DNA of 55,518 bases, counting the filler, from Circinaria calcarea (lineage: Eukaryota), in the NCBI GenBank assembly GCA_051942165.1. It is 5 parts of 5 records of this genome, joined end to end, with 100 filler letters (N's around TTAATTAATTAA, not from the genome) between each part and the next. Parts side by side here need not be neighbours in the genome. Positions count along the whole stretch, not along the records: positions 33,392 to 44,410 come from JAVECS010000727.1; 4 more parts are not named here. One strand, 5' to 3'. Position 1 is the stretch's first letter. The number at the start of each line of letters is the position of its first letter. This document shows, in pieces, positions 1,950-54,763 of this stretch. The notes under the pieces are model-generated. The model ran no database searches. It was given only the letters and a program-made list of their open reading frames with translations, and had not been told where the DNA came from. The translations under genes and the position numbers were made by a program.

Positions 1950-4900
1950 ATGGCTGACACAAACGATCTTGAATTGAACCGCAATAAGGAATTGACCGAG
2001 GAAGCTACCGTACTGGCTACTACGAGAGACCCGGAAGGACCACCCGATTTTGTACACATGGAAGACGCTGACAACATCCACCCTAATGCTGGACATGACA
2101 AAGACAAAGCGAGTCTCTCTGAGACAGCAACGCTTGAACCCGACACGACCTTGGATGTGTCAGAGGACAGGCCAAATAGCGACATCGTTGGCCACAAGTC
2201 CACCGGTCAAGCTGTAACTGAGGATGGCGAAGCCGCTGAACCACCACTCTCAAATGAGGAACAGCCCGGCGTGAGCGCTGAGGACGCACGGAACGACGAA
2301 GATAAACAAAAGCCGCCCTCGACCCTTGAGGAGCAAGATGGAGGGGCCGAATCCGACATATCAGTAGAAGAAGAACCCTCATCACAAGAGTCAGAAGACG
2401 ACTTCAGGAATCGCCGGGAGGTTTATGACGCCGTCAGGCGTGGGGACCTAGAAATACTAAAAACAACACTAGCGAAAATTAGTGATATCAACAGGATGTG
2501 GCGCAAAGGGCAGAATCCGCTACATTTTGCGTGTCGGCAAAGCGAGCGTACTGATGTGATAAAGATTCTGCTGGCCAAAGGTGTGGATGTTAAGTCAGAA
2601 ACTAAGGATAGGTATTTAAACACTGCTTTGCACCTGGCCATGCAACACGGGGAATTATCGACAGTGAGGCTCCTATTAGAAAAAAATGCCAATATCGAAG
2701 CTACCGACTCTAATGGCGAGACACCAATTTTTGACGCCGTATATTGGGATCATCCCAAGATTGTAGAGCTACTGCTGAATAAAGGGGCCAAAGTCAATTC
2801 TCGGTCAACTGAGGGACTAATACCTCTGAGCGCTGCGATTCTACGACTAGATCATCCCGATTCGATGGTCGACTTACTCTTGGACCGATGTGCTGACGTC
2901 AACCTAGCGGACGAAGATGGATGGACGCCTTTACACTATGCGGCACTGTGGAACGAGGAAGGCGCAGTCAAAGCAATACTATCACAGAAGGTTAACCTTC
3001 AGGCCACAAATAAAGAAAAGGAGACTGCTCTACATGTTGCAGTAAGGAACAGTTCCGATGATCTCAAAATCATAAAGCACCTTGTCAACGCTGCCAAAAC
3101 TACTGCCAATCTCGAGGAGTACGTAAGCACGAAGAATGACGATATGGAGACGCCTCTACACGTTGCATACAGGTCAAATGCCCCACACGATGTCATTCAG
3201 CTTCTCCTAGAAAACCATTCAGATCCGACAATTAAAAACAGCAGAGGGAAATCGGTTATTGGTGAGGCAATCAGGGATGGAAATATTTCAATCATCAAGC
3301 TACTTCTAACGAAGTGTGATAAAGTTATTGGCGGGGAAACAGACGATACTCGAGCAGTAGCGTCCGGTTGGCTCGTGAACAAAGAGAATAGGACCAACGA
3401 ATTATATGAGGCGGTAAAGGGGTCTTCAGACCGGGAATCATTTGCTCGGGCTTTATTAGATTTGGATATAGAGTTCGACGTAGAAAAAGCGAAGGATGAA
3501 GGTCGGACGATACTCCATCATCTTGTCGAAAAGGGCAGTAAAGATCTTATTACGAGATTATTGGATATCCATGGCGCAGACACAGAGACAAAGACCAAAG
3601 AGAGTAACCTAACAGCACTTCTCCTCGCTATCAAATGCGGCCGGAAAGATACCACCGCTATCATGGAACTCTTGCTTGAAAAGGGCGCTGATATAGAGGC
3701 AAAGACGAAAGAGAGTAACCTAACAGCGCTTCTTCTCGCTATCAAATGCGGCCGGAAGGATGCCACAGCTATCATGGAACTCTTGCTTGAAAAGGGCGCT
3801 GATATAGAGGCAAAAACGCGAGAAGAAGAAACAGCGTTGCATTTGGCAGTGAATTACGCCGATCAAGCTGACCAGAATGCTCCAGAGTTTTCTGAAGAAA
3901 ACGCCAATCAAGCATCTAAGACACAGTCGGGATCAAAAGCAAAGCCCAAACCAACGAAACCTCTAGGGGAGGCGGAGCGGGTCAGGAAGGACGGCCCGAC
4001 AGACGGAGGGTTTCGTGCCGAATCCAAGCGAGATACGGACACGGCTCAAGCTGAGGAGTTAATCGAATTACTGCTGAAGTATGGCGCGGATATCGGGGCA
4101 AAAGTAAATCTCCCTTAGAACTTTATCAATAACAGTCGTGTCTAATCTCAGTGAAGAATAAGGAAGGTTATACGGCTTTAACGTTAGCCCAGGAACTCAA
4201 AACTCGAACAACCTCTAAGAAGAAATTAAATTCGAGTGCTAAAGAGAATCTTTATACTCACAAATGCGTCGATAAACTTCGTAAACCCCCGGTGATCACT
4301 CAGCTACCCCCGTCCACGAAGCCCGTCTCAGCACCACGAGATCTTTCCGGAGTCGAGAGAGAGGTTTGCGAGTCTTTTGACGCCTTCATAATGGATTTTT
4401 ATGTCCAGACGCATTCGAAGGAAGAGCAGAAAAATCGTGAGGAATCGAAGGAGAAGCCGAAAGAAATTCTCAACGATTCGAGATCAAATCAGAAAGGCGA
4501 TCTCGATGCCTCGATGGAAACTCAGAAGATAAATCCTAAGAAATCAAAAGCGAGTCAAGAAAGCCAAGATGGTGAATCGAAAGGAACTACCCACAACATG
4601 CTGCAGAGAATAAGAAGCGTATACGATTTGATCAAAGATGGTCCAGATGCTATCATGAATGAGGCAAAGGACGAAATGGTTAAAACGCTGAAATCCAACC
4701 TACAAGACCACCGACATCTTGTGAGGTGGATCCACATTCCAGCCAATAACGTAAGTGATTATCGTTGAAACCAATATCGGCTTAAAGAAAGCTAATAGTG
4801 ATCCTTAGATTGTCTGGATTAAGGCAAGTTCAAATACAATTACATGGATACGAACATCAATCTAATAATCATGGTATTGTACTACAGGATTTAGTGCAAC

Positions 4901-33391: not shown

Positions 33392-33635
33392 GGTGAAAAG
33401 CAAGGGCGGGCTGGCTGAATGAAAAATTCGCGAAATGAGGCTTGAGTATCCAAAGGCGGGGGGGGTTCATAAAAGGAGTACTTAGCGTTTAGTTAGAAGC
33501 CGTTGACCTGTTTTTCTAGCCGGGATTTCCGAGGCATTGATTTTTTTTGCTGGAGAAATTTGGGTGGAAATGTTGGAAATTAGGATTATTTTTTTTAAAT
33601 TTTTTTTTGGGAGCAAAACGACATGCGTAAACGAA

Positions 33636-33816
33636 GGGCCCACGCGGGTGACACGTTAAAACGCGACGCCCACCGTATTTACTTGCCTAAAGTATAAGCC
33701 CCAAATTTGTGAGGACCCCTTCTAACACTAGGGCTCCTCGGGCGTAAATTAGTGGGTGCGCCTACGGTCTGGGTAAATTTTGCTGTCGCATTTTTTCTGT
33801 CACCCGTGTGGGGGCC
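33636..33816. repeat. Degenerate ~180-bp foldback / inverted repeat (MITE relic?)
   Basis: CCCACGCGGGTGACA...AAAACGCGAC...GAGGACCCCT mirrors the reverse complement of AGGGCTCCTC...GTCGCATTTT...TGTCACCCGTGTGGG. Centre is at ~33725. Confidence 0.5.
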
Positions 33817-34332
33817 ATATGGTATAAGAACTTTCGCGAATAGCTAAATAGGTTGTCTTTAGAGGGGGATTTATTAGTCAATTAATAGGGCCAAATAGCA
33901 AGTGAGGTTGGTGCTAATCCTAGGTGTAGCAAGGGGACATATCAGGAAGATACCAGTTACCAGGGTAAAAAAGTGTGTGTATCCGTGCAATTTTATGCAT
34001 GGACAGGGGGAGGGTATTTTCAGCAAATTCGACATTATATATTCACATCCGCGGCTATGCATCAGTGAATAAACTTCTTTTTTGAGATGAGAGAGGGTAG
34101 TTCTAGTTTCTAGGTCACAAGACTCGGGAGGCGGGGGGAGAGGAGGGAAAAGCGAGAGCGGAGAGCTTGCAGGTTGGAATAAGAAGAGAATCTAACAGCC
34201 CTCGGTATCATTAATACCGAATTAATTCTGCCTCTGTCTCTGAAATCTGGACACCCCCGCACAAACTTGTTCTTCCCCCCCACCCCCGGCTATGAGGGTA
34301 TCAAGGAGGAGGTAGGGTAGGGTAGGTCAGTT

Positions 34333-35015
34333 TCAAATAGGCTCCTTAACACCATGGCATATGAGCCCGTCCCCGTAGAGCCCTACCTCGGCTTTGGCCA
34401 GGCAATCCAAGATACCGGTAACATCGTTTGGGCTATCCACGCAGTCGATGGAGCTCGGGATCCCCCACCAGAAATAGAACTTGTCGCCATCCTTGAACAG
34501 GTAAGTGGCATTGTCCGCCTGCCCGAGGATAGGGATCGGGTTGGTGAATTGGATTTCATAACCATAGTCATTGAGCTCTTTTGCGTCCGGGACGACATCG
34601 AGCAGATCAGGATCGTTACACCAGCCGAACGGGATCAGGCTCTCCGGCACGACTTTGTAGAATGCGCGGCCGTTGTAGTACTGGATTTGGAAGGGATCCT
34701 ATTATCAGATATAGACGTTATTTTTATGAATATATATTGTTTGAGATAAGGGTACCATGGGACTTTGGCTCGTCGAAGCGGTAGTTAAGGCTTTCCCGTG
34801 AAACGGTGTTTTCTAAGGTATGTGGTTAGATACACCTAGAAGCTGTAGCTGTGAGGGTAGTAAAAATGACTAACCCGGGTCGCGGCCATAGTCGTAGCTC
34901 GAGGGTACTGGAATAGGGTAGCTAGGACGTTTCGAAATTTAGGTATCACAGGCTTGTATGTCGACCGGAAAGCGAAGGATCGAAGATATCGACCAAGGAT
35001 GGGTGAATTCTTCAT
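34333..35015 (-). CDS. Hypothetical 187-aa protein, Arg-rich N-terminus, possible SUKH/US22-like domain
   Basis: Three in-frame exons (35015-34875, 34812-34756, 34698-34333) with GT..AG introns. Core LIPFGWCNDP..NPIPILGQADNATYLFKDGDKFYFWWG..DSPNDVTGILDCL. The fold assignment is inference. Confidence 0.65.
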
Positions 35016-35463
35016 TCAGAAATGAAGGACCAGCTTCTTATTTAAGGCAGTAGTGTAGAAAACAATGTAGAGTTGTCAGGTTATGGCCTAAGGGCCTGAG
35101 GTTACGAGGTCAAAGGAAGGGGAAGAGGGATAGCAGCGTTTCATAGCCTCGGTGCGATGATTATGTATTTAGGGTTTGCTATTTGAGCAGGCTCGGCAGA
35201 GTTTCATTCATGATACTTTGAATTGCTGGCGCCTCCAATGAATTGATCGCAAAGAATTCGACTCGATCAGATGATCTATATTCACTCTATACAATGCCTC
35301 GATATAGCCTTAGACCTAATATTTCAGTTCATAGCATCCCCCCCAAATATTCCTGTAACAATTAGAGAACTGCTTAGGGTTACAATCTCTATTTATCTAG
35401 CCTAATAACGCAGGTGCCTCTGAATCCCCATCAATCCTCCGTCTACTACCATAACCTAAGACC

Positions 35464-36578
35464 ATGGCATCATCGAGCCTTGCTGGACGCATCCTTAAAC
35501 CGGCGCACCTCCTCTTCGACATCCACCAAGGGCTATCGTTTACCAAAGCTGATGTGAGTTATACCCTGGAACCTGGGCCAAAAAATATCGCGCCGATGGT
35601 TTTCGTAACTTTACAGATACTAACATAGAGGAACAACTAGATAGCAGCTTTCTTGAAGACCACGCCCGGAATTCTAAAGGCTAACGGACTGCAAGGGGAT
35701 GAGCTCAAGTCACTACAGGATTGCGTTGGTATATTACGTACGAACATGTAAACATCCGTACCAATCCCAGCGACTATCATTGATCAAAGCTGAAGTTCCA
35801 CTAGCGAAAACGAAAAGGCAATAGTTCCGAACCTTGATAAACCACCTATGGCAAGTATCAAAGGGGTTCAAGTGCCCCTTTACTCTACTTCAGACATGCT
35901 AGCTCACATTCTTTCTACCACTGGGATTCCCGAGAAAAGGCAGGATCCGAGCGAACAAGCGACCATGGAAAACTATTATGTCCCCTACCTCGCTATGTTC
36001 CATCAGTGGAACAATATTATCTCACCAAATCCAGAGTATCAGCCATACATGGCCTCTATCCTGGTCTTTGGCACCGATGGGTTATCGCCGCCTTTGATCC
36101 TAGGGTCCTCAAACTACAGGCGAAAAGATCAAAAGATTTTGCTCATAGAGCGGGCACGAGCTGATCTGAAAAATGCAGGCCTGATTCCAAAACAACAAGG
36201 AAAGAATTACGGAAACTGCGCCGAGACGACCCAATGGCTGATCCTGAAGTAGGAATCTAAATGCTGAATGTAGCCATTTCGCCTTAAGCTCTCTGCTAAC
36301 AATATCTGCTTAGGAAACTTGGGCTTTCCAAGGCAGGAGTGAGTCGAGGAATTGCATTGGAGAAAACGAGAGAGGACTCCGGTATGATGAAGTGGGACCC
36401 CAAAAGCGTTGCACAGCGGTTGCGCCATCCCTGCCTTGACTGTGGACAACTGGCCTGCCAAGTAGGGTTCAAAGAGAAGGATCTCGAAAGTCATTTCGGA
36501 ATTGAACAAACGGCGCGAAAACTAAGTCCTGAATGGAAACCCCTGAAAAGGCAGGATATGGGGCCGTTTCAAACGTAG
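35464..36578 (+). CDS. Putative Zn-dependent nucleotide/nucleic-acid deaminase-fold protein (~301 aa)
   Basis: Four phase-consistent exons (35464-35553, 35641-35747, 35805-36248, 36314-36578). Motifs YGNCAET and LRHPCLDC match the (H/C)xE...PCxxC deaminase signature. Confidence 0.65.
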
Positions 36579-36622
36579 AGGTGGGTATTTTGAAGTAGAT
36601 TGTATTATAGCAAGGAAATGGG

Positions 36623-37956
36623 TTAGATGTTTCTCAACAGTGGCAGGCACTCTTTAAGCAGATAGTAGCGAAAATGATATCCCTTTAGGCCCTGTGGGGG
36701 ATTCTTGCGATCCAAGTCGAATGTCTTGGTGCGTAGGGTTGCTCTACGGATTGGATCAACACCCTGAAGCCCGCCAATTGTCGGTGGTCGTTTGCAGGTA
36801 ACCAACCATTTGAAAATCTTCGTGGCGATGTTTTTTGTCTTTGATCTGGTTGAGCCTATCGGCGTAAAGCTCACTGAGTTTCACCGGTAACTTCACTACC
36901 TCGTCGAGTAATTAATCCTCGTACCGGCCTTGTCTTCAAGAATGTCGAGCATGAGCCGTGTGTAGAGAATCATTCCTTGAATATATCAGTACATCAGTGG
37001 ACAGTCCATCGCGTGGTCTCCACATACCTTCGACATTTCCCTCAGGCTCTCCACAACTCGTGGCATTTGTCGGGACAGCGCTTTGGATTTTCGGAGCCGG
37101 TCTTCAATGAACAGCCGTATATCTTCTCTCGATTTGTCTATGACAGAGCTCAGCTGAAGATGGATGTAGAGAGTATCTTTAGCAAGGTCTTCGATGCTTT
37201 CCCAACTTGCAGTTTCTGGGACGTTTTTAATTCTTCGAGCCACTCTTTCAAGACTTCAGGATCGGTGCCTGTGCATTCATCGAGGGCATCAACAACCAGA
37301 AAGGCTGGCTGGACCATAGCCAGGACATCTCGTTTGGCTTCTTTAAGGCATTTAGGGGTCAGATCTTCGTCCTGAACCCTTTGGCGGACAATCTCAAAGA
37401 ACTTCGCTCTCAGATTAGAATCTGCTCGTGGGATCTGGTTGAGCAACTGATGTAAAATGGTATGATAGAACTTCCTTAGTGATCGTAGGTCTTTTGTATC
37501 TGTACTTTTGGAATCGAAGAAAAAACACATGGGAATGAGGTTCTCTTGTTCGAGATGCTCGCAAAGGTACTACTAGATTTAGTCATGAGGTCTAGGATTT
37601 TGGGTTGTCAATTACTGACGTGCGCAATGAAGCTTTTACCCGATTCGGCCCTCCCCAAAATCCAGGGCAAGTTATTCTGCAAATTCCAACGCTGAAATTG
37701 CCATTCGCGAGTAATCCATTGACATGTACCGGCGGTGAATTTGCTGTGTCGTTCGTCTCTGATAGGTTCGAAGTCACAAGGCTCAAAGGATCCGAGAAGC
37801 TCTTGGTTGCTCGGTTCTGTCAAATTCATAATCAGGTTTTATGACAGTTTCTCTAGGCGTGGGCACTTTACCCTTGCTGATAGTCATACTTATTGCGGTC
37901 GGGGCGTTGATTTGAATGGAGTTAATTGCCTGGTTGTTCATTGCCTTTCTGGCCAT
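36623..37956 (-). pseudogene. Decayed NACHT-type NLR with N-terminal candidate amyloid signalling motif; no C-terminal repeat domain
   Basis: Spliced MARKAMNNQAINSIQINAPTAI...|..ELLGSF..FTAGTCQWI..FQRW..WILGRAESGKS (Walker A) |YLCEHL..CFFFD..ILHQLL..FLVVDALDEC (Walker B). Frameshifted segments follow: DIRLFIEDRL, GMILYTRLML, LPVKLSELYADRL, ATKIFKWLVTCKRP. At least 3-4 frameshifts. Confidence 0.8.
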
Positions 37957-38331
37957 ACGAGCCGTCTCAGGACAGTACGCTTTGACCAAAGTGTTGTACT
38001 GTCCGCTCCAATCAGTACAGGGGTGCAGCGGGCACCAAGCTGGGTATCCAAAGCTTTAAATATATAAGCCCGGATCTTAGTTGGTGCACCTGACATTAAT
38101 GGGTACGCCCGGCGAGTTGTAGTATGCCCGGCGAGTTCCAAGGTATTTGTATCCCCAGGGTGTGAGATAGATATTAGCCAATAAAGGATGGCTATTTAAC
38201 TAGGGCAACCAATCAGCAGAGTTGATCCATTGGAGACCCCTCATAATACGGACTTAGTTTGACGGCTTGCATCCATTATCCACAGTGATGAACTCTCTTT
38301 GAAACTAGGGACCTCAGTTCGGGTGACGGTT

Positions 38332-38480
38332 TCACATTCTAAAGTTCTGCCTGCATAGATGACGAACGGGCTTCTCTGCCTAATATTGGTGGGCTGAACG
38401 AGTAAAAGCTATTTTTTTGACAGTGAGACCTAGTCTCACATTCTGGAGTTCTGCCTGCATGGATGACGAACAGGCTTCCC
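38332..38480 (+). repeat. 45-bp direct repeat (38332-38376 and 38436-38480)
   Basis: TCACATTCT(AA/GG)AGTTCTGCCTGCAT(A/G)GATGACGAAC(G/A)GGCTTC(T/C)C. All five differences are transitions. Confidence 0.85.
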
Positions 38481-38490
38481 ATACATTTAC

Positions 38491-38909
38491 CTGTCCGTTC
38501 TTAGGCTGGCACTAATTACTAGGCTGGCACGCTTACAGGGCATGCCGGGTAAATGTCCACGCGGAAGCTAAACGCCTTTGCGCCCGGAGAAGGCTTTTGC
38601 GCCCGGAGGCTCTTACAGAAAAATAATGTGTTACAGAGAGGGCGCTACGTCTTCAATAAGCTGCACGGTATAATCGGAACAAATATATGAATAAGTGCTA
38701 TTGAAATATTATAGCAATGCTATGAAATTATGTATGATATATATGTGCTGTGTAACATGTACAGAACAATATTCGGGGGATGGCTGAGCTGTTTTTAGGC
38801 TGTTTCGGTAAAGCCAGTTTTCACCGGGCGTAAAGAGCCTCCCGCCGCAGCCTCTGCGTGGATACTTACGTGCCAGCCTAGTTATTAGTGACAGCCTAAG
38901 AACGGACAG
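38491..38909. mobile_element. 419-bp MITE (Tc1/mariner-pogo-like), 41-bp TIRs
   Basis: TIR CTGTCCGTTCTTAGGCTG(G/T)CACTAAT(T/A)ACTAGGCTGGCACG at both ends (2 mismatches). TA flanks the right end. Confidence 0.85.
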
Positions 38910-39050
38910 TATATGTATACTGTCCCATTATCCTAAGTCATTCCGATATTCTTATTTCTGGCGGTGGTCTCACGCGACTTAGATTATATCGAACACCAAG
39001 GTAATTTGAGTATATATGAGGGAGAATTTCGTTAACACCTTGCAGTCGCC

Positions 39051-39575
39051 ATGTCCGCTCAAGCAGCCAATATCTCCAGCGAGGCTGCTTATGCGACGAA
39101 ATTGCTCGACAAAGCGGTTTCCTATATCGGAGAAGTTCGCAAGACCTACAAAAATAATCTCAACGACATCAGAAGTCTTCTCCAGAGTGTCAAATACCAA
39201 GACGCCTTACAGACGCCCACTGTTGGTCTTGCGCTTTCCACAGTCAAGGACGTTTTGGAGAGGCTGGTACAAGTTTCGAAATCCCCAAGGGATTTAAATC
39301 ATCAACTATCCAAAATAATGGACGAACTCAATCAGGCAACAGTCAATCTGAGATCTCAACTCCCAGGCGATATCTCCACTGCTTCTGATAACAATGCAAA
39401 GAGTGGAATCCAGACTAACGCTGCCATTGGAGGAAATTCTCCGGAGGGGCGCGTGGGTACTACGGCATCAAGGAATACGGCTACGAACAGTATGCAAACG
39501 AATGCCCCCGTGTATGGAAATCCCGAAGCTATCGCCGAATTCACCAATCTCTGGGCTCCGGGGAGGGGAAATTAG
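39051..39575 (+). CDS. Short HeLo-like/SesA-type helical protein with C-terminal two-repeat candidate prion-forming domain (174 aa)
   Basis: Amphipathic helical N-domain paralogous to the 40417 gene (LL..A.S.I..VRK, DAL.T..V, DV..RLV, R.L.HQL, IM..L..A). C-terminal repeats STASDNNAKSGIQTNAAIGG (39375-39434) and TTASRNTATNSMQTNAPVYG (39459-39518), then FTNLW. Confidence 0.8.
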   Translation: MSAQAANISSEAAYATKLLDKAVSYIGEVRKTYKNNLNDIRSLLQSVKYQDALQTPTVGLALSTVKDVLERLVQVSKSPRDLNHQLSKIMDELNQATVNLRSQLPGDISTASDNNAKSGIQTNAAIGGNSPEGRVGTTASRNTATNSMQTNAPVYGNPEAIAEFTNLWAPGRGN

Positions 39576-40086
39576 GAAACAACTGTACGCCAGAGTAACA
39601 CCGCCCTGACGAGGGGAGGGACATGAAGAATACTCCTTATTGTATATATTGCTGCTTGGCTTCTTCCGGAATTAATATAGCTTCCTCTAAGATGCATTGA
39701 TATTATGTAGTTGCGAAGAGATCTAAGGGTGTGTATTAATCGTCAATACTGCAAAACCCGTCCAGCTCTCTACCCCATTGGTTTGTGGATTTCGGTCCCC
39801 TACCTGCCGCGAGACTGGTTTGCATGATTGCAGTCTCCAAATACTAAATATTACACGATTTCCCGGTCTTTGACGCTGGGCGACATATCCTAGAATATAA
39901 AGAGCGTGCCGGTCTCTGATTTAATAATATTGTGTCGCTGTGCTTCTTTGAATTAAGCATGAGAGGTTACTCTCTCGCACATTTGGAAGATTATGGAAAG
40001 ATATAGAAAGCTTATATAACGCGCAGCGGGGTAAACATATTCCGGGCGCGTATTCCATCCTAAGCTTTGCCAACGAAAACTCAACG

Positions 40087-40307
40087 TCTCGGCACACCAT
40101 AACTCCGCCCCACCTAATGTCTACGCAACACCACGACTTTTTTCCACTACACCACATACAACTTCTATGCAAAATGCCGGGGAAATGTTGAGTCACCTCT
40201 CTTGTTCTTGGAATCATAAATTCAATCACGAATTTCTTATACCTGCTAAATAATTGTATCTGGTGTTGCGTAGAAATTAGGTGGGGCGGAGTTTTGGTGT
40301 GCCGAGA
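40087..40307. mobile_element. 221-bp MITE with 47-bp TIRs
   Basis: TCTCGGCACACCA(T/A)AACTCCGCCCCACCTAAT(G/T)TCTACGCAACACCA at 40087 and as reverse complement ending 40307 (2 mismatches). Confidence 0.85.
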
Positions 40308-40416
40308 ATTCTGTCAACCGCGTGACTCCGCATCCTACTTCCAAGGTTGGAAGATCCGTTCAGGGTTTATGGTCAGCTCGCGGGAATTTAATTTAATCAA
40401 GAAATTTGCTTACAGC

Positions 40417-41337
40417 ATGATCTAGTTGGGTCTCGAAATTATTGGAGCCGCTTCGGCTGCGTCAGCCCTGCTGGAAACAGCAATCAGCATTATCAAACGG
40501 GTTCGCAAGGCACATGAACAGCAGAAAAACCTTGCCAAGGTGTTAAGAAGTCATTATGATGAACTGATAAGCACCAGGAAGACTATTCAGATTGTTGAGG
40601 ACGAGGACGCCTTGCGGACGGCAGCTGTTGTTTCCGAGCTAGTCAAGCTTGAAGATGTTGCAGCAAGGCTCGTCGATTGTCTTGAAAAGATGGTTCCAGG
40701 GACCAAAGGCTCCATGCGTCAACTCGCCCATCAACTTGTGCAAGGATCAAGAGATGAAAACGCGCTCGCTGATATAATGAACAAACTTAGCCGAGCAAAT
40801 TCGAGTCTTAGCCTGCATATCCAGGTTGCTAATGTCGGCCTGATGCGAACTATCAGAGACAATTTTGTTGCAAATGCGGAAGTCGTTAATCGGATTGACC
40901 TTGTCCTTCAGCAAGTTTTCGGCGAAGGGAGAGGGCTGAAGCTAGCCGAGTTGCTCAGATACCGGTCTGCCCGAGGTATGTCTGATTGTCCGTACAGTTT
41001 GAAAAACTGACATTGAATAGATGACGGCATGGTACCTCTAAGCGATGGCGATATCGCATGGCTTACTGATGAAGTGGCTTTCCTTACTGGTGATGCAGAC
41101 ACCGCCTCTAAACCTGCAGCGAACGGTCTTACGTCGCGGATCGTTATTGATAACTCAACAGAAGAGCAAGCTTTGCAGATCAACGGGCCGATTGGGGAGA
41201 AGGGTTGGTGGGAGGTTAGTCACCTCGAGATTAGGAGAAACAAGGCCATCGGTAGGAGTATACAGGTCAATCATAGCATGTCGATGGATGCATTTGAGCG
41301 TTTATTGGCCGTTCGTGCTGCAGATTCACGAGGATAA
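40417..41337 (+). CDS. SesA/HeLo-like (MLKL-like 4-helix) effector with C-terminal two-repeat motif; in-frame TAG at codon 3 (possible pseudogene)
   Basis: ATG ATC TAG then LGLEIIGAASAASALLETAISII (hydrophobic N-terminal helix typical of HeLo-like/SesA domains). Intron 40976-41020. Repeats RIVIDNSTEEQALQINGPIG (41137-41196) and LEIRRNKAIGRSIQVNHSM (41224-41280). Confidence 0.75.
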
Positions 41338-42373
41338 ATTATAAGCGTATCAGCTTTCGAACTAGAAGCCTAGAATTGATAGGGCAGAGCTGGCGCTCTA
41401 ATTATAATAATACTAAAGAGTTGATTTTCTGTCCAATATATTAGTTATTCGAGCGTTAATCACTGATTAGTCCCAGATCTGGAGGCTTCTGTTATTAGCC
41501 TGGCAGGTTTGCAGGACTGCGAGAAATGAGATGGAATAGTAGTAGAGGGAAAGTTGTATCTGTAATCAAATAGGTCCATCACACTCACTCAAATTGAAGC
41601 GAGACTTCGGAACGTGTGCAAGATGTTACACTTGCAATTCGCGTTAATCAACTCTCTTTAGCCAGGTCAAGGAAACACCCAGGGATATCAACCTTAATGG
41701 AAGCAAGTATACTGTGCATCAAATTATTTCCTCGGGTACCCGTCCACGCCGTCGCCAAAGGCATGGTCAACACTGGCTTCTGAAGTGATGCCACGGTGGA
41801 TCGGGCCCGGCAAAACCTAGCTGTGAATGTAGAAGCCATGTCTCCAAGATTTACAACAGGTAGTACCCATGACATCAAAGTTTTGCATAGGACCTGAATA
41901 GGGGTCCATGTTGCCACGGCTCCGCGGAGCAATACACAAGTATATCCGGCATCGTGCAAGTCGCTACCACAGCTGGAAGATACTCCATTCTCTTCAAAAT
42001 AGTAAACGTAGAGACTATTCTGCCACGCGCAGGCTTACCAATGAAGTCAGGGCGCCCTTTGCAACAGCATATGCGACAGTTTGTAGAAAATATTTAAAGT
42101 GCGATTCCGGTTGCGGCGAAGACCTAAATAATCTGGCACTCCAAGCCCGCATATTTGAAGACATCATTTGCTAAATAGAGGGAATGGAAGAAGGTTTCCG
42201 GAAAGTGCAAGTCGGATCGTGATGGCAGAAACCCAGCTTCAGGAAATTAGCCACCTAAGACCTCGCGGTACACTTTCCAATTGCCAAGGAAGCAGATTCT
42301 GGCGAAGTAGCCCCTCTCGCCAGTTAGAAGCCTCAGTCGCCATACTTTTCCTAGATACTGTTATTTTTTTGCA

Positions 42374-43557
42374 TTAAGCCACATCTACCCCTTCCAATCC
42401 CGCTAGTACCTCCTCACCTACTCCACCCTTTTCTAAAATCAACCCCAATATCTTCCCTACTAGACCCCTCTTCATACCTCCCCTTGGGGGCCTCCAGACC
42501 CCTTCTTCATTTCCCTCGCGTTGACCTACCTCTTTCTCACCAGCCTGACTTCCCCCAGTTGCCGTGTTGAGAGCATCCGGGATGCCTGGCGTGGTCAGAC
42601 GGGATGGCGGATCGATGGTACGGATGGAGAGGAGTTGTAGCGAATCAGAGTTGGGTGTAGATACAGATGATGTTGTGATGGAAACAGCGAGCACGGCGTC
42701 GGCAACGGCAAGTTCTTCGCGTGTAGGATCGAAAAGGATGTTCGGTCCAATGGCCATAACGAGAAGGGTGATTGGTGGGCGGCTTTGGTAGGTTGACTTG
42801 GTAGTTGGCTTAGTATTAATGGCCTTGTTGAAGCGTGGGTAGAGTGGTATCGATGCCTCCCAGTCATCGTCAAAAAGTGGATCCTCGTCCAATTCTGACT
42901 TGAGGGCTGGAAGACGAGTGGATAGAAGGGCCAAATGGGTAGTAAGGGAAAGGAGGGGGATAGGGTATGAGAGAGGTGGCGAGAGAAGCAGAATCTTTGA
43001 ACAAAGATTAGCATTATCTCGAACAAGTCAGCTGCCATAGATACATCAATATAAAGCTTCCAGTGCCAGCGGCGGTTGATCCACAATTTATCCACCAAGT
43101 CCCCCGTCGACAGTAAAGCTTCATTCAGCATAGCTGCCAGAAACACTGGCAGTGCATCATCCTCTCTAAATCCTGGAATATCAATTGTCATCTCTACCCA
43201 GCCATTTTCCCCCGAGCCTTTTCTTCCTGGCGTGACTCCCTCCTCTTCCTCCACATCACCCATTTCTTCATCTTGCGCTCCAGTGCCAATGTGTATCTTC
43301 AAGTTATCACCGTTCAACCCACGCAAAGGAGTTTTCTCCACTTCGGCTTTTACACCTACAATGGCTTCTGTCCCGTCGGCGAAGCATATTCGTGCGCTAC
43401 CATTAGTTCCAGGTAGGATCTCTGTTTCCGCGACGAGCGGTCGAAATTGGGAAGGATGGCGGGAATCAGGCCGTATGGGTGGTGTGAAGGAGAGAGAGGA
43501 GTGGAGATAGGAGAGCTCAGCGGGTGAAAGCAGGAGCTGCGTCGTTGAAGGTGCCAT
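42374..43557 (-). CDS. RRP42: Exosome complex RNase PH-like subunit Rrp42
   Basis: LSPAELSYL..PIRPDSR..QFRPLVAETEILPGTNGSARI..EAIVGVKAEV, WKLYID|ILLLSPP, FDDDWE, NILFDPTREELAVA. Intron 42995-43044. Confidence 0.9.
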
Positions 43558-43981
43558 AGAAAGATGAACGGCAGGGAAGGATTAGCCGACAAGAGGGTGG
43601 CTTGAAAGGCTTGCACAATATATTAATCATTTTTATCCACCGCCAAAATCCAGATCTATAACCCGGTTCTTCTCTATTCTCTGCATTATTTCTTACATTT
43701 AACATAGCCTCAAGGTTCTATCAAGGTATCCCATCAGGTCTCCCCCTTTTTCACTTCTTAATCAGAGTCGGAAAAGTGGATTTTGTCAGGAAGAAGATTT
43801 TCACACTATCATCGGCTTCTTGGCTTCTTGGCTTAGGATTCAAGACAAACATTCAGATCCGTCTGGCCTTATAGGCGTTATACATTCAGACCGTGAGTAG
43901 AAGGCAGTACATATCCCTTTTTGTCATCTCCGACTTTGTGCTCGTTGTGATTCATGTTTGAACGTGCAACTTGTCCACCCT

Positions 43982-44410
43982 TTACACAGTAATCTCCGCC
44001 CTTGCCCTACCTACCTCGTCGCTCACCCTGTCCATCTGCTTTACCTGCTCGGCCGCCTTACCCGTACCGACCTCTTCCTCTCCGCCTCCATACCTCTCTT
44101 CCGCACCCGCAATGCACTGCATGTTCGCTCCGAGCTTGTTCATCGTCTCCATCCACTCCTCGTACGGATCGCTATCAAACACAATCCCGCCACCCGCTTG
44201 CAAATGCGCCACACCGTCCTTTACCAGCATAGTCCTCAAGGCAATACATGTATCCATTGCGCCCTCTTCCAGTTTCACCTCACCCTTCTCATCGAAGCTG
44301 ACACTGTCATAGCCAAAGTAGCCTACCGCGCCGGCATAAACCCCTCGCTTTTCACCCTCGAGTTCGGCGATTAATTCCATAGCACGGACCTTGGGAGCAC
44401 CGCTTACGGT
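43982..44410 (-). CDS. TRP2: Anthranilate synthase component I, C-terminal fragment (5' part beyond contig end)
   Basis: [59 protein letters not shown]. Confidence 0.92.
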
Positions 44411-47953: not shown

Positions 47954-50900
47954 ATGAACGTTTCCACCTCCTTTTTACCCTCCCAGGCCTCGGCCGACCC
48001 CCGTTCCACCCCATGGGTACACCCCCGGCATCTCGAAGACTTCCAAGAAACTCTAAAAAGCATTCCGGCACCCCATCTACTCCCTCCGGAGTCCGGCGAA
48101 CAACACCACGCCAAGGACGAAGCGGAACAAGGTCTTCGAGACTTCAATTTAGCCAGGGTATGTCCTAGTCTCCGGCGGCGGACAGCCAAACGTCTTCTTC
48201 GTAATGCGGTGTCGTGGTCATTGAAAAACCCACGAAAGACTGGAGGAAGTTAGCAGAGGCAGACAGAAAGAGGAGACACTACTGTCCGTCAAACCGGTTG
48301 TAAGTATTCAATCACAGTTCGTAAATGGGTGGGGCGGAGCACTTGGACCCTGAAAGTCACCCACGATAAACATAACCCACCCACCCTGCCCAGACCCGTT
48401 CCTAGATCCTATGTACAAGCACAGGAGACCTGGTTTTGCCGAAGAAAAGGCTATGGCGACCACTCACCGGGCGGCGGGGGTGTCGTATGCGAAGTCTTCC
48501 GCCATACTGAGGGAGAGCGGACTCGGTATGGACATTCTATAACCTCATTAGCAAGCCGAATAAGAAAGGACAGACGAAAATGGAGCAAGCAAAGGAGTTA
48601 CAAGCTCGATTGGAAGCCTCAGGCCTCATGTCATGCCGCTGATCAAGACCATATGGAGTGACGACGGCAGCAGAGAACTCGGTCGAGTTATGGAACAAAT
48701 CTTTTTTATTTCATCCATTCAAATAACCCTTAGCCAGACGATTTGTTTGTAGGTTTATGATACAAACGGATGCCACATTCAATACTAACCGCCTCCGCTT
48801 GCTTCTTTCCACATGCGTCGGTATTAGCAATACTGGCATGACCTTTCCGGTTGCTTTTTGCTACATATCCTCGGAATCGTCGGAGGCATTCACCCACATC
48901 TTCCATTGTATGGATGTCCTAGTATGGCACGATAAGGTCGTCCCGGGGTCACGTGTGGTGGTATCCGATCAAGCCAAGGGCTTAATCGCCAGCTTGGCGA
49001 AGCGTAAAACTGCCAGACGGTTAGCGGAAGTCAATGCAACGAAAGCGGGATTAGGAAAGGAACAAGTAGCAGCGGTAGGCGATGCTGCTGCCGCGCAATT
49101 GGACGATCTGGAAGCAGTCATAGCGGTTACGGAATTAGAGGAAAAGGAGGGGGTTCATCCGCGGAATAAACCCGAAGGGGAGGAGGCGGAGGAGGCGGAG
49201 GACGACGAGGACATCGAGGACATCGAGGACATCGATGCTGGATGGTTAGAAGACGATATTATCCTGCAATTCTGTCAGTGGCATATTGCGGAAGGTATAA
49301 TAGCTCACTTTACCAAATCTACTTACAGACAGGAGGCACGGATCGAAATCAAAAGCCTTATATGGCGTTGGATTCAATCCCCTACCCAGAAAGAGCTTCG
49401 ACAGAACTGAGGATTCTCCTCGACGGTCTCAGACCGACAGAACAGCGGTATCTTTTAGCGAATTATACCCTAAAAGAACGTCAGTTTGTCACTGCATACT
49501 TGAAGACTTACCCTAATCTTGGGTGCTTTAGCACGCAAAGAAACGAGTCAATGCATGCCTCCTTAGATGTTGCAGGCAATCTTCATGACGGCCAGGAACT
49601 AGTGGATGCGTGTATAAAGTTAGCAAAGACTTGCGACGTTTTAGAAAAGAGATTACTTACAATAGAGAATAAGTCTCGAATTGGAGCTTCCAGGGAGCTC
49701 GACCGCGAAGCCTTCGCGGCTATGCACCTCTGGGTGATCCAGTATGCCCTGACAATCATGTGAAAGGAATGGGAACAGGCGAAGAAGTGGGTAGAGGAAG
49801 GGGGTATAGGGCCGGAAGAGCCAGGCTGCAATAGAAATTGCAGCCTGCCAATCCAATTCGCACTTCCTTGTCGGCATTGGATGTTCAAATGCTGTGTAGA
49901 AGGGACTCCTTTACCCTTATCTCTTGTCCACCCTCGCTGGCTGCTCGACAGGCCCCCTACGGATGAAGGGTGGGTAATGTCTTGGAGGCCAGAGGCTCCA
50001 GACATTGCCCGAGAAACACGTCAGCGAGAGGAAGCATTCGACGAAGGAAGAGGAGACATCTTCCGAGACCAGGGCAGGAATTTGGTCACCAGACAGGCAT
50101 TGAAGATAATAGAGGAGCAGGAAGAACTCACCGGGCCAGAAAGGGAACGCTTTGCTGCAGACATAAGCAGGACAACTGATAGAGTAGTCAGCTATTATCA
50201 GTAGAAAGAAAAGAAGAAGGAAAACTTACCTGTAGGGCTTCTAGAAGTGCTCCCAAATAGGAAAGATCAGCTCGTTCAGAGCAGGATGAAACGAGCTTTG
50301 ACTGGGCGGGAAATGACGGACAAAAGAGAGCAAGACAGGCTTGCTCAATTGACAGCGAAAGAGCAAAAGGAGGTACAGGAAGTTCGGGTGGCGGCACTCG
50401 AGGAAGAGCAGCGAGCAAAAGAGCAAGAAGCTGCTGATATCAACGCAAGAAGGGTGGAAGAAGACGAGGACAGCGTCAACATCCGCCACACCTAGGGCAG
50501 AGAGCAGTTCTTTTTCTCGAGTCTCAGTATGCTTCCGATCAGGTCAAGTCAGATACGACGACCCAGCCCAAGCATTTCTCTTTCGCCATTTCGGACTCTT
50601 CCCCCCGAAACTATCGAATCCATCAACCTTATTACCCCGGCCTTGACTTCCTTTGTCCCAGTCGAGGATTATCCAAGTTATCCTTCCTCTTCTTCCTCCT
50701 CTTCTTCCTCCTCTTCTTCCTCCTCTTCTTCCTCCATCGAGGAGCTCGATCCACCACATCTTCCACCTGCTAGGAGTAGCGGTAGGGTGGCGAAGCCATC
50801 CAGAAAGGAAAACTCGCAGCCGTGGCGGCAAATGCTGGCGGGGAGAAGAGACAGGTCGCGGCGGCGGCGAAGGATGTCAGGAAGAAGGAGCGTGCTTCCG

Positions 50901-53793: not shown

Positions 53794-54763
53794 ATGCTCG
53801 CGCCAGAAATGAAGCATGCGACCAGCTTAAACAATGCCTACGAATATTCTGAAGGGAGCACTGTGGCAAATACGCAGTCAGATCCTGCACATACGGCAAG
53901 TAACCTATCGATCCATGCGACACACGATTCTGATCGGATGATAACCCCGACCGCATCTTCAAAATCCGTAGTTGATACCCAAGAACAATTCAATACGGCT
54001 GAAGCTAGATCCAAGGTGCACATGCCGGCACTGGACCAGGACAATATAAAGCCCCTGTCGAGTGGAAATGGTTTAGTTGATAATGAATTCGCTAGCTCTC
54101 GGCTAGACAAAATCAAGGTTGATGGGGAGGTAAATGGATCTGCGACACAGCTGCGTACCCAGAAGAGCACCGTGGAGACCATCGATGAACTCTCGTTGCC
54201 TGTATCGACAATTATTGATCTTCCACCAAGATGAGAGGCCCGAGGCGGTGCTTAAAGCAAGGAAGAAAAATAAGCGAAGTAAGACTACTGGAGATATTCG
54301 GGACATCAAGCCGTCCCTAGTTAATGATGGACCACCGACAGTTGCAGCTTCAAAGGATACAAACCAACCCAACCTTTCTGAAGTGTACGAAGCGGCAAAG
54401 AAGGCTCAAAGTCTTGTCGTAGAAGTCAAATCTGTAAAGAGAAGGCTTCAGGTGACCGAAGACACCATAGCTAGAAACAAGGCCGACTATTTTTCAAAGC
54501 CTATAGACCACGCCTCGCCCGCAAACGTCCTCTCCGACGCCAAAGACACCGCCAACAACATCCAGCTCCTTCCTCGGATATCGTCGCCTGAAGCCACTCC
54601 GGTATCTATCCAAGCCCTTCTGGCACCATTCCAGACACAACGGAAACACGGAGAAAAAGGGCCTAACTTGCATAATCCATCGAATAGCGGCAAAATAGGC
54701 TATCGAGTTGGTCTGAGCAAGAAACAAAGAATCGAGCCGCTGCTACGGGGTGTGAGGAAATAG
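53794..54763 (+). CDS. Possible hypothetical low-complexity protein (two overlapping ORFs; frameshift or unresolved intron)
   Basis: Two ~200-aa same-strand ORFs (53614-54234, 54134-54763) with protein-like disordered composition. No recognisable domain. Confidence 0.35.

Follow-up and report, generated by a model that had tools for sequence, protein, structure and literature searches.

Templating of the C-terminal repeats of an effector (r1 and r2) by a single N-terminal motif (r0) of a NOD-like receptor (NLR) is established for the pair NWD2/HET-S. Here, we describe a locus in Circinaria calcarea (GenBank assembly GCA_051942165.1; 31.5 Mb in 5,512 contigs) in which a broken NLR lies beside two genes, here called short and long, whose helical protein products each end in two repeats of a motif akin to the HET-s-related amyloid motifs (HRAMs), and we set it against the closest described systems, as presented in excerpts of the sources cited. 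In HRAM pairs, r0 is usually of the same class as the adjacent effector, charge complementarity between r1 and r2 is a hallmark, positions 8 and 18 co-vary, and in HRAM1 a two-residue gap in r1 is tolerated relative to full-length r2 and r0 (PMC4518210). HELLF and HET-s represent two HRAM classes that co-exist in one genome without cross-seeding (10.1101/2020.07.06.188508), and HET-s and HET-S are alleles that differ at 13 residues (PMC3531502). The window, that is the whole stretch of 55,518 nucleotides (nt) that was analysed, is made up of five fungal contigs that are unrelated to one another, with N linkers between them, and gene neighbourhood can be read only within positions 33392-44410, which come from contig JAVECS010000727.1. 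Within it, the NLR remnant runs on the minus strand from 37956, the short gene follows divergently on the plus strand, and the long gene comes next on the same strand. The features are (aa, amino acids):

36630-37956, minus strand: broken NACHT-type NLR; Pfam NPHP3_N at E 5.3e-6 and 1.8e-15 (two NACHT pieces), frames broken
37872-37956, 37620-37816 and from 37569, minus strand: NLR exons, the first carrying r0; two introns placed by GT/AG and branch sites
37897-37956, minus strand: NLR r0 seed motif of short spacing (N8 to Q16, seven residues), ending Q-I-N-A-P as r2 of the short family does
39051-39575, plus strand: short effector-like gene, 174 aa, intact open reading frame (ORF)
39369-39428, plus strand: short protein repeat r1 (residues 107-126)
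39453-39512, plus strand: short protein repeat r2 (residues 135-154)
40369-41337, plus strand: long gene for a putative HeLo-like/SesA-related effector, 289 aa; exons 40369-40371, 40426-40975 and 41021-41337
41131-41193, plus strand: long protein repeat r1
41218-41280, plus strand: long protein repeat r2

We read this locus as two separate receptor-effector channels of one HRAM-like motif type, and give this reading slightly better than an even chance. The support comes from the pairing of the long gene with long-spacing NLRs elsewhere, the fixed spacing of the motif within each family, the separation of the families into clades, the register of charges between repeats and the precedent of HELLF and HET-s. 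An earlier note on this DNA had offered, as its alternative, that the two proteins are specificity variants answering to different NLRs, and it is this alternative that fits best. In the proposed model, an activated NLR would cluster its N-terminal r0, r0 would template the two C-terminal repeats of the effector into a beta-solenoid, and the helical bundle would thereby be freed for action at the membrane. The channels would be kept apart by the length of the second beta-arch and by position 19 (G versus A). The short protein would be the former cognate, head-to-head partner of the now-broken NLR, and the long protein a pore-former whose usual partner, a long-spacing NLR, may have been lost here or may lie elsewhere in the genome, leaving the effector orphaned or served in trans.

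Both spacings of the motif reported in the earlier note were recovered. The pattern N-x-A-x2-S-x-Q-x-N is found in the NLR r0 (N at 37935) and in r1 and r2 of the short protein (39390 and 39474), and the pattern N-x-[TA]-x3-[AS]-x-Q-x-N, one residue longer, in r1 and r2 of the long protein (41152 and 41239). The 11-kb contig holds three short and two long matches against shuffled means of 0.003 and 0.023, a significance that is overstated because the patterns were taken from the observation itself. All 18 full short-type proteins have the short spacing in both repeats, and over 162 proteins 85 of 111 Q-x-N matches have the long spacing and six the short, five of those six in short-family proteins. 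Among 75 full-length long-family rows, 35 carry two strict repeats, 7 carry one and 33 none; the remaining long-family rows mostly keep the same spacing, with M, L, I or V at position 16 (judged by eye). The repeat period is 29 residues in 33 of 40 long proteins and 28 in 17 of 18 short ones. The window r0 and short r2 are identical at 9 of 21 positions and share the short spacing and A19-P20, compared with 6-7 of 21 between r0 and the long repeats.

The partners of the long gene were examined at 11 metagenome loci, mostly on short contigs. At five of these (L005, which is degenerate, L006, L007, L008 and L009), the start of a divergent NLR with a long-spacing r0 lies head-to-head with the long gene, at a distance of about 0.5 kb in L006, L008 and L009; since L005/L006 and L008/L009 are near-copies, they represent three independent arrangements. 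The other six comprise one locus with a second long-family gene upstream, one with other genes and four that are too short, and none of the 11 holds a short gene. The spacing of each NLR seen, that in the window included, is the spacing of its head-to-head neighbour, and because spacing is near-invariant within a family and matched by the NLR, it is suggested to matter. Long-family proteins and NLRs with a short N-terminus also stand at neighbouring accessions (RDW63467/RDW63468 and OBS23232/OBS23234), and in the excerpted tables of a 2022 survey (PMC9815663) the short-N-terminus NLRs whose accessions adjoin those of long-family proteins carry the mark 'noasm' for two of five stems, with none of five further stems among the rows listed. 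At L011, two long-family genes lie in tandem (287-469 and 1189-1734), the upstream one with long-spacing repeats and the downstream one ending at the contig end. Decay of NLR-effector pairs appears to be common, because those of L005, L006 and L007 carry several premature stops.

When set in the 21-position HRAM frame, the long repeats have a hydrophobic residue at position 5, N8, small residues at 10 and 14, Q16, N18 and G or H/Y at 19, whereas the short repeats and the window r0 have one residue fewer in arch 2, and A19; the second beta-arch is three residues long in the long family and two in the short family. N8, Q16 and N18 are fixed in these aligned repeats by the pattern used to select them. 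Several features of HRAMs are present, namely two C-terminal repeats of about 21 residues in a HeLo-related protein of under 310 aa with a loop in the range of 6-18 residues, and a single matching r0 on an adjacent NLR, in the window for the short gene and at 5 of the 11 loci for the long gene. The charges of r1 and r2 are complementary in register, with ratios of opposite to like pairs of 41:6 in 40 long and 25:0 in 18 short proteins; the ratio is highest at shift 0 and lower at all six shifts of one to three residues, in related sequences that are not independent. Other features differ. The G19 that is invariant in HRAMs occurs in 26 of 40 long r1, 3 of 40 long r2 and none of 36 short repeats, and instead of hydrophobic residues at 5, 8, 10, 16 and 18 with R/K at 15, position 5 is hydrophobic (long) or Ala (short), 10 is small and 15 mostly hydrophobic. 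Because G19, R/K15 and the hydrophobic residues at 8, 16 and 18 fail, the motif is not filed in HRAM1-5. N8 and N18 plausibly form a compensated polar core, since positions 8 and 18 co-vary in HRAMs. Divergent long-family relatives have tails of the ordinary HRAM pattern (by eye).

The published HRAM table, in its available part, includes an N8 subgroup with one r0 that shares eight consecutive residues with the L006 r0, and six diagnostic 4-mers of the motif are absent from its 155 rows (PMC4518210). Compared by eye, the GDQN (PMC12261475), PP, sigma and PUASM patterns as printed do not match the motif. Neither the motif nor an amyloid adaptor of this kind was found described in our searches of the literature and its supplements, including the passages available of 10.1101/2020.01.06.895854, PMC12258605, PMC12881547 and 10.1101/2024.11.07.622273, and an earlier description may exist. 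The motif is apparently an unlisted, HRAM-related class in two arch lengths, with repeats that probably work like those of an HRAM through amyloid formation.

Judging by their sequences, the short and long proteins are distant homologues, each from its own old family. They are 29% identical over 128 columns in BLASTP (E 3e-6), and their profiles match at a probability of 97.6 (E 3.2e-12) through the N-domain, both repeats and the terminal helix, with 4-6 of 21 positions identical between repeats. In a quick tree of 142 columns, 19 short and 57 long rows form separate clades (SH-aLRT 99). The tandem paralogues of the earlier note are homologous as claimed, but only remotely so, and a recent tandem duplication was rejected on account of the separate clades; as these are old, the short gene did not arise by recent disarming of the long one. 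The internal deletions ascribed to the short protein show up in the alignment of the helical domain as two gaps, of about 13 and 18 residues, and about 85 further residues are missing between bundle and repeats.

The short ORF at 39051 proved to be intact, as described before. It encodes a compact helical bundle (residues 1 to about 104) with a polar, charged first helix, followed by the two short-spacing repeats and a short C-terminal helix. Upstream of its ATG lies a possible 5' intron (39001-39045, by eye), and the upstream in-frame stretch has a stop at 38934 with no ATG after it. Since no in-frame ATG lies upstream and the homologues start at a similar place, the polar N-terminus is probably real and not a mis-called start. 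The 18 homologues, 34-48% identical, come from Trichoderma, Monosporascus, Chaetomium, Gaeumannomyces, Corynascus and metagenomes, and in this genome each of two queries returned one match. With no Pfam assignment for the family and no usable Atlas match for the short protein, this is a compact effector-like family without annotation.

The polar first helix of the short protein and the hydrophobic one of the long protein, contrasted in the earlier note, are borne out family-wide, with median Eisenberg hydrophobicities of 0.10 and four charges (16 short rows) versus 0.40 and two charges (48 long rows). In the short protein, the best 19-residue Kyte-Doolittle window reaches 0.39 (family median 0.45 over 19 rows), below what is expected of a hydrophobic helix, and in some members it rises to 1.5, which overlaps the long-family range of 0.37-2.07; the long protein, at 1.78 over 19 residues, has a hydrophobic helix. 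The model of the short protein matches MLKL (4btf) at rank 5 with Z 9.8, a root-mean-square deviation (rmsd) of 2.6 and 96 residues aligned, tied with designed bundles, and the AlphaFold tails of the short and long models have confidence values (pLDDT) under 50. Within the two-channel reading, we lean slightly towards the short protein being an effector itself, acting through an amphipathic and not a hydrophobic first helix. The helix that follows r2 is conserved in the short family and often hydrophobic (Kyte-Doolittle values reach 1.9; that of the window protein is 0.0), and could serve as a solenoid cap or as an alternative membrane anchor.

For the long gene, the start at ATG 40417 given in the earlier note was rejected, as an in-frame TAG stands at codon 3; translation is predicted to begin instead in an ATG micro-exon (40369-40371), followed by introns at 40372-40425 (54 nt) and 40976-41020 (45 nt), with no stops. 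Both intron positions were found again in four related loci, one of which lacks the ATG, and exon 2 compared with those four loci gives ratios of non-synonymous to synonymous change (dN/dS) of 0.16-0.33. The protein, 210 of whose 289 residues are identical in a 289-aa protein of Zopfia rhizophila, consists of the hydrophobic first helix, a four-helix bundle, a helical extension and the two long-spacing repeats. Its family is large: a mixed profile finds 755 representatives at E up to 0.001, of which the best 150 were examined; not all bear the motif, and named members belong to four ascomycete classes (Dothideo-, Sordario-, Eurotio- and Leotiomycetes). The match of the long protein to Pfam SesA lies below the cut-off (E 0.056; 14 bits against 26.3), PF17111 and PF17107 are each matched by 9 of 56 members at E up to 0.1 (best 3.1e-4 and 4.8e-5), and its Atlas neighbours carry PF17111. 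The model of the 73% identical Zopfia protein has four helices and finds MLKL (6ux8) at rank 3 (Z 11.8, rmsd 2.8, 129 aligned), a score tied with unrelated bundles, and Foldseek gave no match at E 0.001; searches of PDB sequences returned helical designs and weak matches, none of them to the HET-s or HELLF prion domains. These data hint weakly at a HeLo-like/SesA-related protein. In this genome, relatives of the long protein were found only at its own locus and in a SesA-type all-in-one NLR (L003; G000:C1286, 1492-1935, minus strand), in which an N-terminal helical domain related to the long effector (E 4.5e-7) precedes an NB-ARC-like region. In one 651-aa protein (P0092), the long-family domain and repeat motif are fused to tetratricopeptide (TPR) repeats, which may reflect either two genes fused in gene calling or an all-in-one protein.

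The NLR of the window, read through the two putative introns, meets its first stop after 233 codons, and remnants of NACHT and winged-helix regions follow further on in other frames. A functional fungal NLR has an intact NACHT followed by sensor repeats; here the NACHT is broken, and no ankyrin (ANK), WD or TPR repeats were seen before the convergent gene. As it stands in the assembly, the NLR is decayed and frameshifted, a state on which the earlier note is silent; its breaks may instead be an assembly error. The expected place of its sensor repeats is occupied by a convergent, spliced-looking gene (35464-36578, plus strand) with two exon pieces of 152 and 92 aa, neither matching Pfam.

Several observations weigh against two separate channels. 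The profile scores of the window r0 show no preference for the short protein: short r2 gives 7.9, and long r2, once a gap is free, gives 12.1. The L006 r0 reaches 32.7 on short r2 when a gap is free but 19.8 on long r1, and the L008 r0 likewise 14.4 and 5.7; of three long-spacing r0 seeds, two fit short r2, one gap being free, better than the long repeats. Because HRAM1 tolerates a two-residue gap, a difference of one residue need not insulate. The long genes of L005, L006 and L007 have one, six and seven stops in exon 2, so that only L008/L009 show an intact NLR-long pair, as far as the contig reaches. No second short gene beside a short-spacing NLR was obtained (0 of 191 metagenome and 0 of 44 viral candidates; the 20 long-family clusters looked up are from species other than those of short-family members; the rows listed of the 2022 survey, which do not cover these genera, gave no match to the accessions), and the short channel therefore rests on a single locus. 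The genome yielded no NLR with a long-spacing r0: of the nine pattern matches, one is long r1 and eight are without NLR context, and 15 of 37 NACHT matches were examined; a genome search with the L006 r0 region came back empty, and a motif-like match on contig C591 has no NLR context. The short-spacing pattern gives seven matches genome-wide against nine for a control, two of the seven at this locus. Finally, two independent channels that adjoin by chance call for an explanation. The absence of a long-spacing NLR is tempered by an assembly of 5,512 contigs in which one similar NLR ends at a contig edge: L037 (G000:C2052), a NACHT-ankyrin NLR that has lost its N-terminus to the contig edge, shares 71% identity with the long-spacing L008 NLR over 35 residues, and is thus a candidate for serving the long effector in trans.

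The interpretation put forward in the earlier note, a relay like HET-s/HET-S, assumes that a short-spacing NLR seeds the short protein as a non-toxic amplifier or adaptor, whose fibril then seeds the long pore-former across the one-residue mismatch. It stood in so far as an NLR-templated amyloid switch on HeLo-like effectors is concerned; the relay itself is weakened, not refuted, and we now consider it unlikely. The order NLR-short-long on one contig agrees with it, as do the likeness of short r2 to long-spacing r0 seeds (10 of 21 positions identical with the L006 r0, the pair that gave the profile score of 32.7) and the failure to find a long-spacing NLR in this genome, and an adaptor role of the short protein keeps weight because its first helix is polar family-wide, although some members approach the hydrophobicity of long ones. 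Long effectors, however, pair directly with long-spacing NLRs at 5 of the 11 loci, the short gene occurring at none of the 11, which are mostly short contigs, the families are old and separate, and no relay could start from the window NLR today because that NLR is dead. In its general form, the short family would be made up of conserved non-toxic amyloid adaptors, with a disarmed HeLo-like bundle and an r0-like repeat pair, that are given the fold by NLRs with one arch length and hand it on, amplified, to pore-formers with the other; this too is improbable, and would, if true, amount to an ASC-like middle tier in fungal NLR signalling and a natural breach of a cross-seeding barrier.

That one NLR served two parallel effectors, its r0 templating both directly as in the PP and sigma clusters, with the difference in arch length tolerated, is a distinctly doubtful alternative. 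Three-gene clusters with two effectors are described (PMC5485727), HRAM1 combines a gapped r1 with a full r0 (PMC4518210), the window r0 scores 12.1 on long r2 once one gap is free, and L011 has its long-family genes in tandem, but the spacing is near-invariant in each family, and in all pairs seen the NLR next door has the spacing of its effector. Very unlikely is a role as a decoy or in allorecognition, in which the short protein, freed from its dead NLR, would cap or poison long-type fibrils, or act as a prion that kills fusion partners with a matching toxic effector; the polar first helix, the r0-like r2 and a short gene left intact while its NLR decayed are in keeping with this, and exaptation of a non-toxic prion has been proposed for HET-s, but the same source remarks that evidence of such a system is lacking outside Podospora (PMC3531502, in excerpt), and the short family is old and conserved, not a recent null allele. 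The repeats are least of all likely to be a small folded beta domain without an amyloid switch, their likeness to r0 being incidental. In favour of this are the absence of matches to Pfam amyloid motifs or to the HET-s and HELLF prion domains in the PDB, the low-confidence tails and the loss of G19 and of hydrophobic 8, 16 and 18; against it, neighbouring genes carry the motif once at the N-terminus of the NLR and twice at the C-terminus of the effector, charges pair in register and divergent members have, by eye, tails of ordinary HRAM pattern.

Each gap between the three genes contains one element resembling a miniature inverted-repeat transposable element (MITE), and the two elements differ:

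38491-38909, strand not assigned: MITE-like element in the NLR-short gap, terminal inverted repeats of 41 nt
40087-40307, strand not assigned: MITE-like element in the short-long gap, terminal inverted repeats of 47 nt

The terminal repeats of the first are unique to the locus and its inner part recurs at about 30 further genomic sites, and the second has ten further near-full copies of 84-95% identity. In the promoter region of the NLR, beside the first element, lies a 46-nt direct repeat (38329-38374 and 38433-38478, 89% identical). Elsewhere in the window, on other contigs, a 722-aa ankyrin-repeat ORF (1950-4118, plus strand), unlinked to the locus, is perhaps the C-terminus of an NLR, and a 209-aa ORF (54134-54763, plus strand) has a faint SesA match (E 0.11) and lies near a piece of Mutator-like element (MULE) transposase (48757-49410).

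The locus is a real feature, for which a relay like HET-s/HET-S is possible and not the best reading. It points to an HRAM-related motif class spread over four ascomycete classes, for which the 2022 survey, in the part available, records 'no motif' on two neighbouring NLRs (PMC9815663). Two natural variants whose beta-arches are one residue apart in length offer a clean test of backbone length versus side chains in the specificity of amyloid seeding. If the short protein were non-toxic and yet seeded the long one, it would be a dedicated fungal amyloid adaptor, of which no description was found in the literature searched, as far as the available passages go.

Compared with known systems, the locus is like NWD2/HET-S, FNT1/HELLF and HRAM1-5 in having, adjacent to an NLR with one N-terminal motif, a helical effector that is shorter than 310 aa and bears two repeats at its C-terminus. 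It shares with HRAM1-5, as described in the available text (PMC4518210), an 8-residue loop and in-register charge complementarity, with Q16 as in HRAM5, and differs in that positions 8 and 18 are both N, 15 is hydrophobic where HRAMs have R/K, three of the four repeat types carry A, H or Y instead of G19, and a variant one residue shorter is fixed through a whole family. As in HET-s/HET-S, both proteins have two-repeat tails, and one first helix is hydrophobic and the other apparently unfit for membrane insertion; in contrast to those near-identical alleles with one prion domain in common, short and long are neighbouring genes from separate old clades, about 29% identical and with repeats of unequal length. 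The weak Pfam matches and the bundle model of the long family, which aligns with MLKL, hint at a likeness to HeLo-like (PF17111, now PigL_N), SesA (PF17107) and MLKL proteins, whereas the window proteins fall below Pfam cut-offs with fold scores that tie with unrelated bundles, and the short family lacks both the hydrophobic first helix and the helical extension. The locus also resembles the PP (PNT1/HELLP/SBP) and sigma (Het-eN/SesA/SesB) clusters, in which one NLR has two motif-bearing partners, the second of them a lipase, with one motif common to all three (PMC5485727). The cluster ORFs scanned include no lipase partner and no PP or sigma Pfam match, and here, unlike in those clusters, both partners are helical-bundle proteins with double repeats, of which only one fits the spacing of the NLR.

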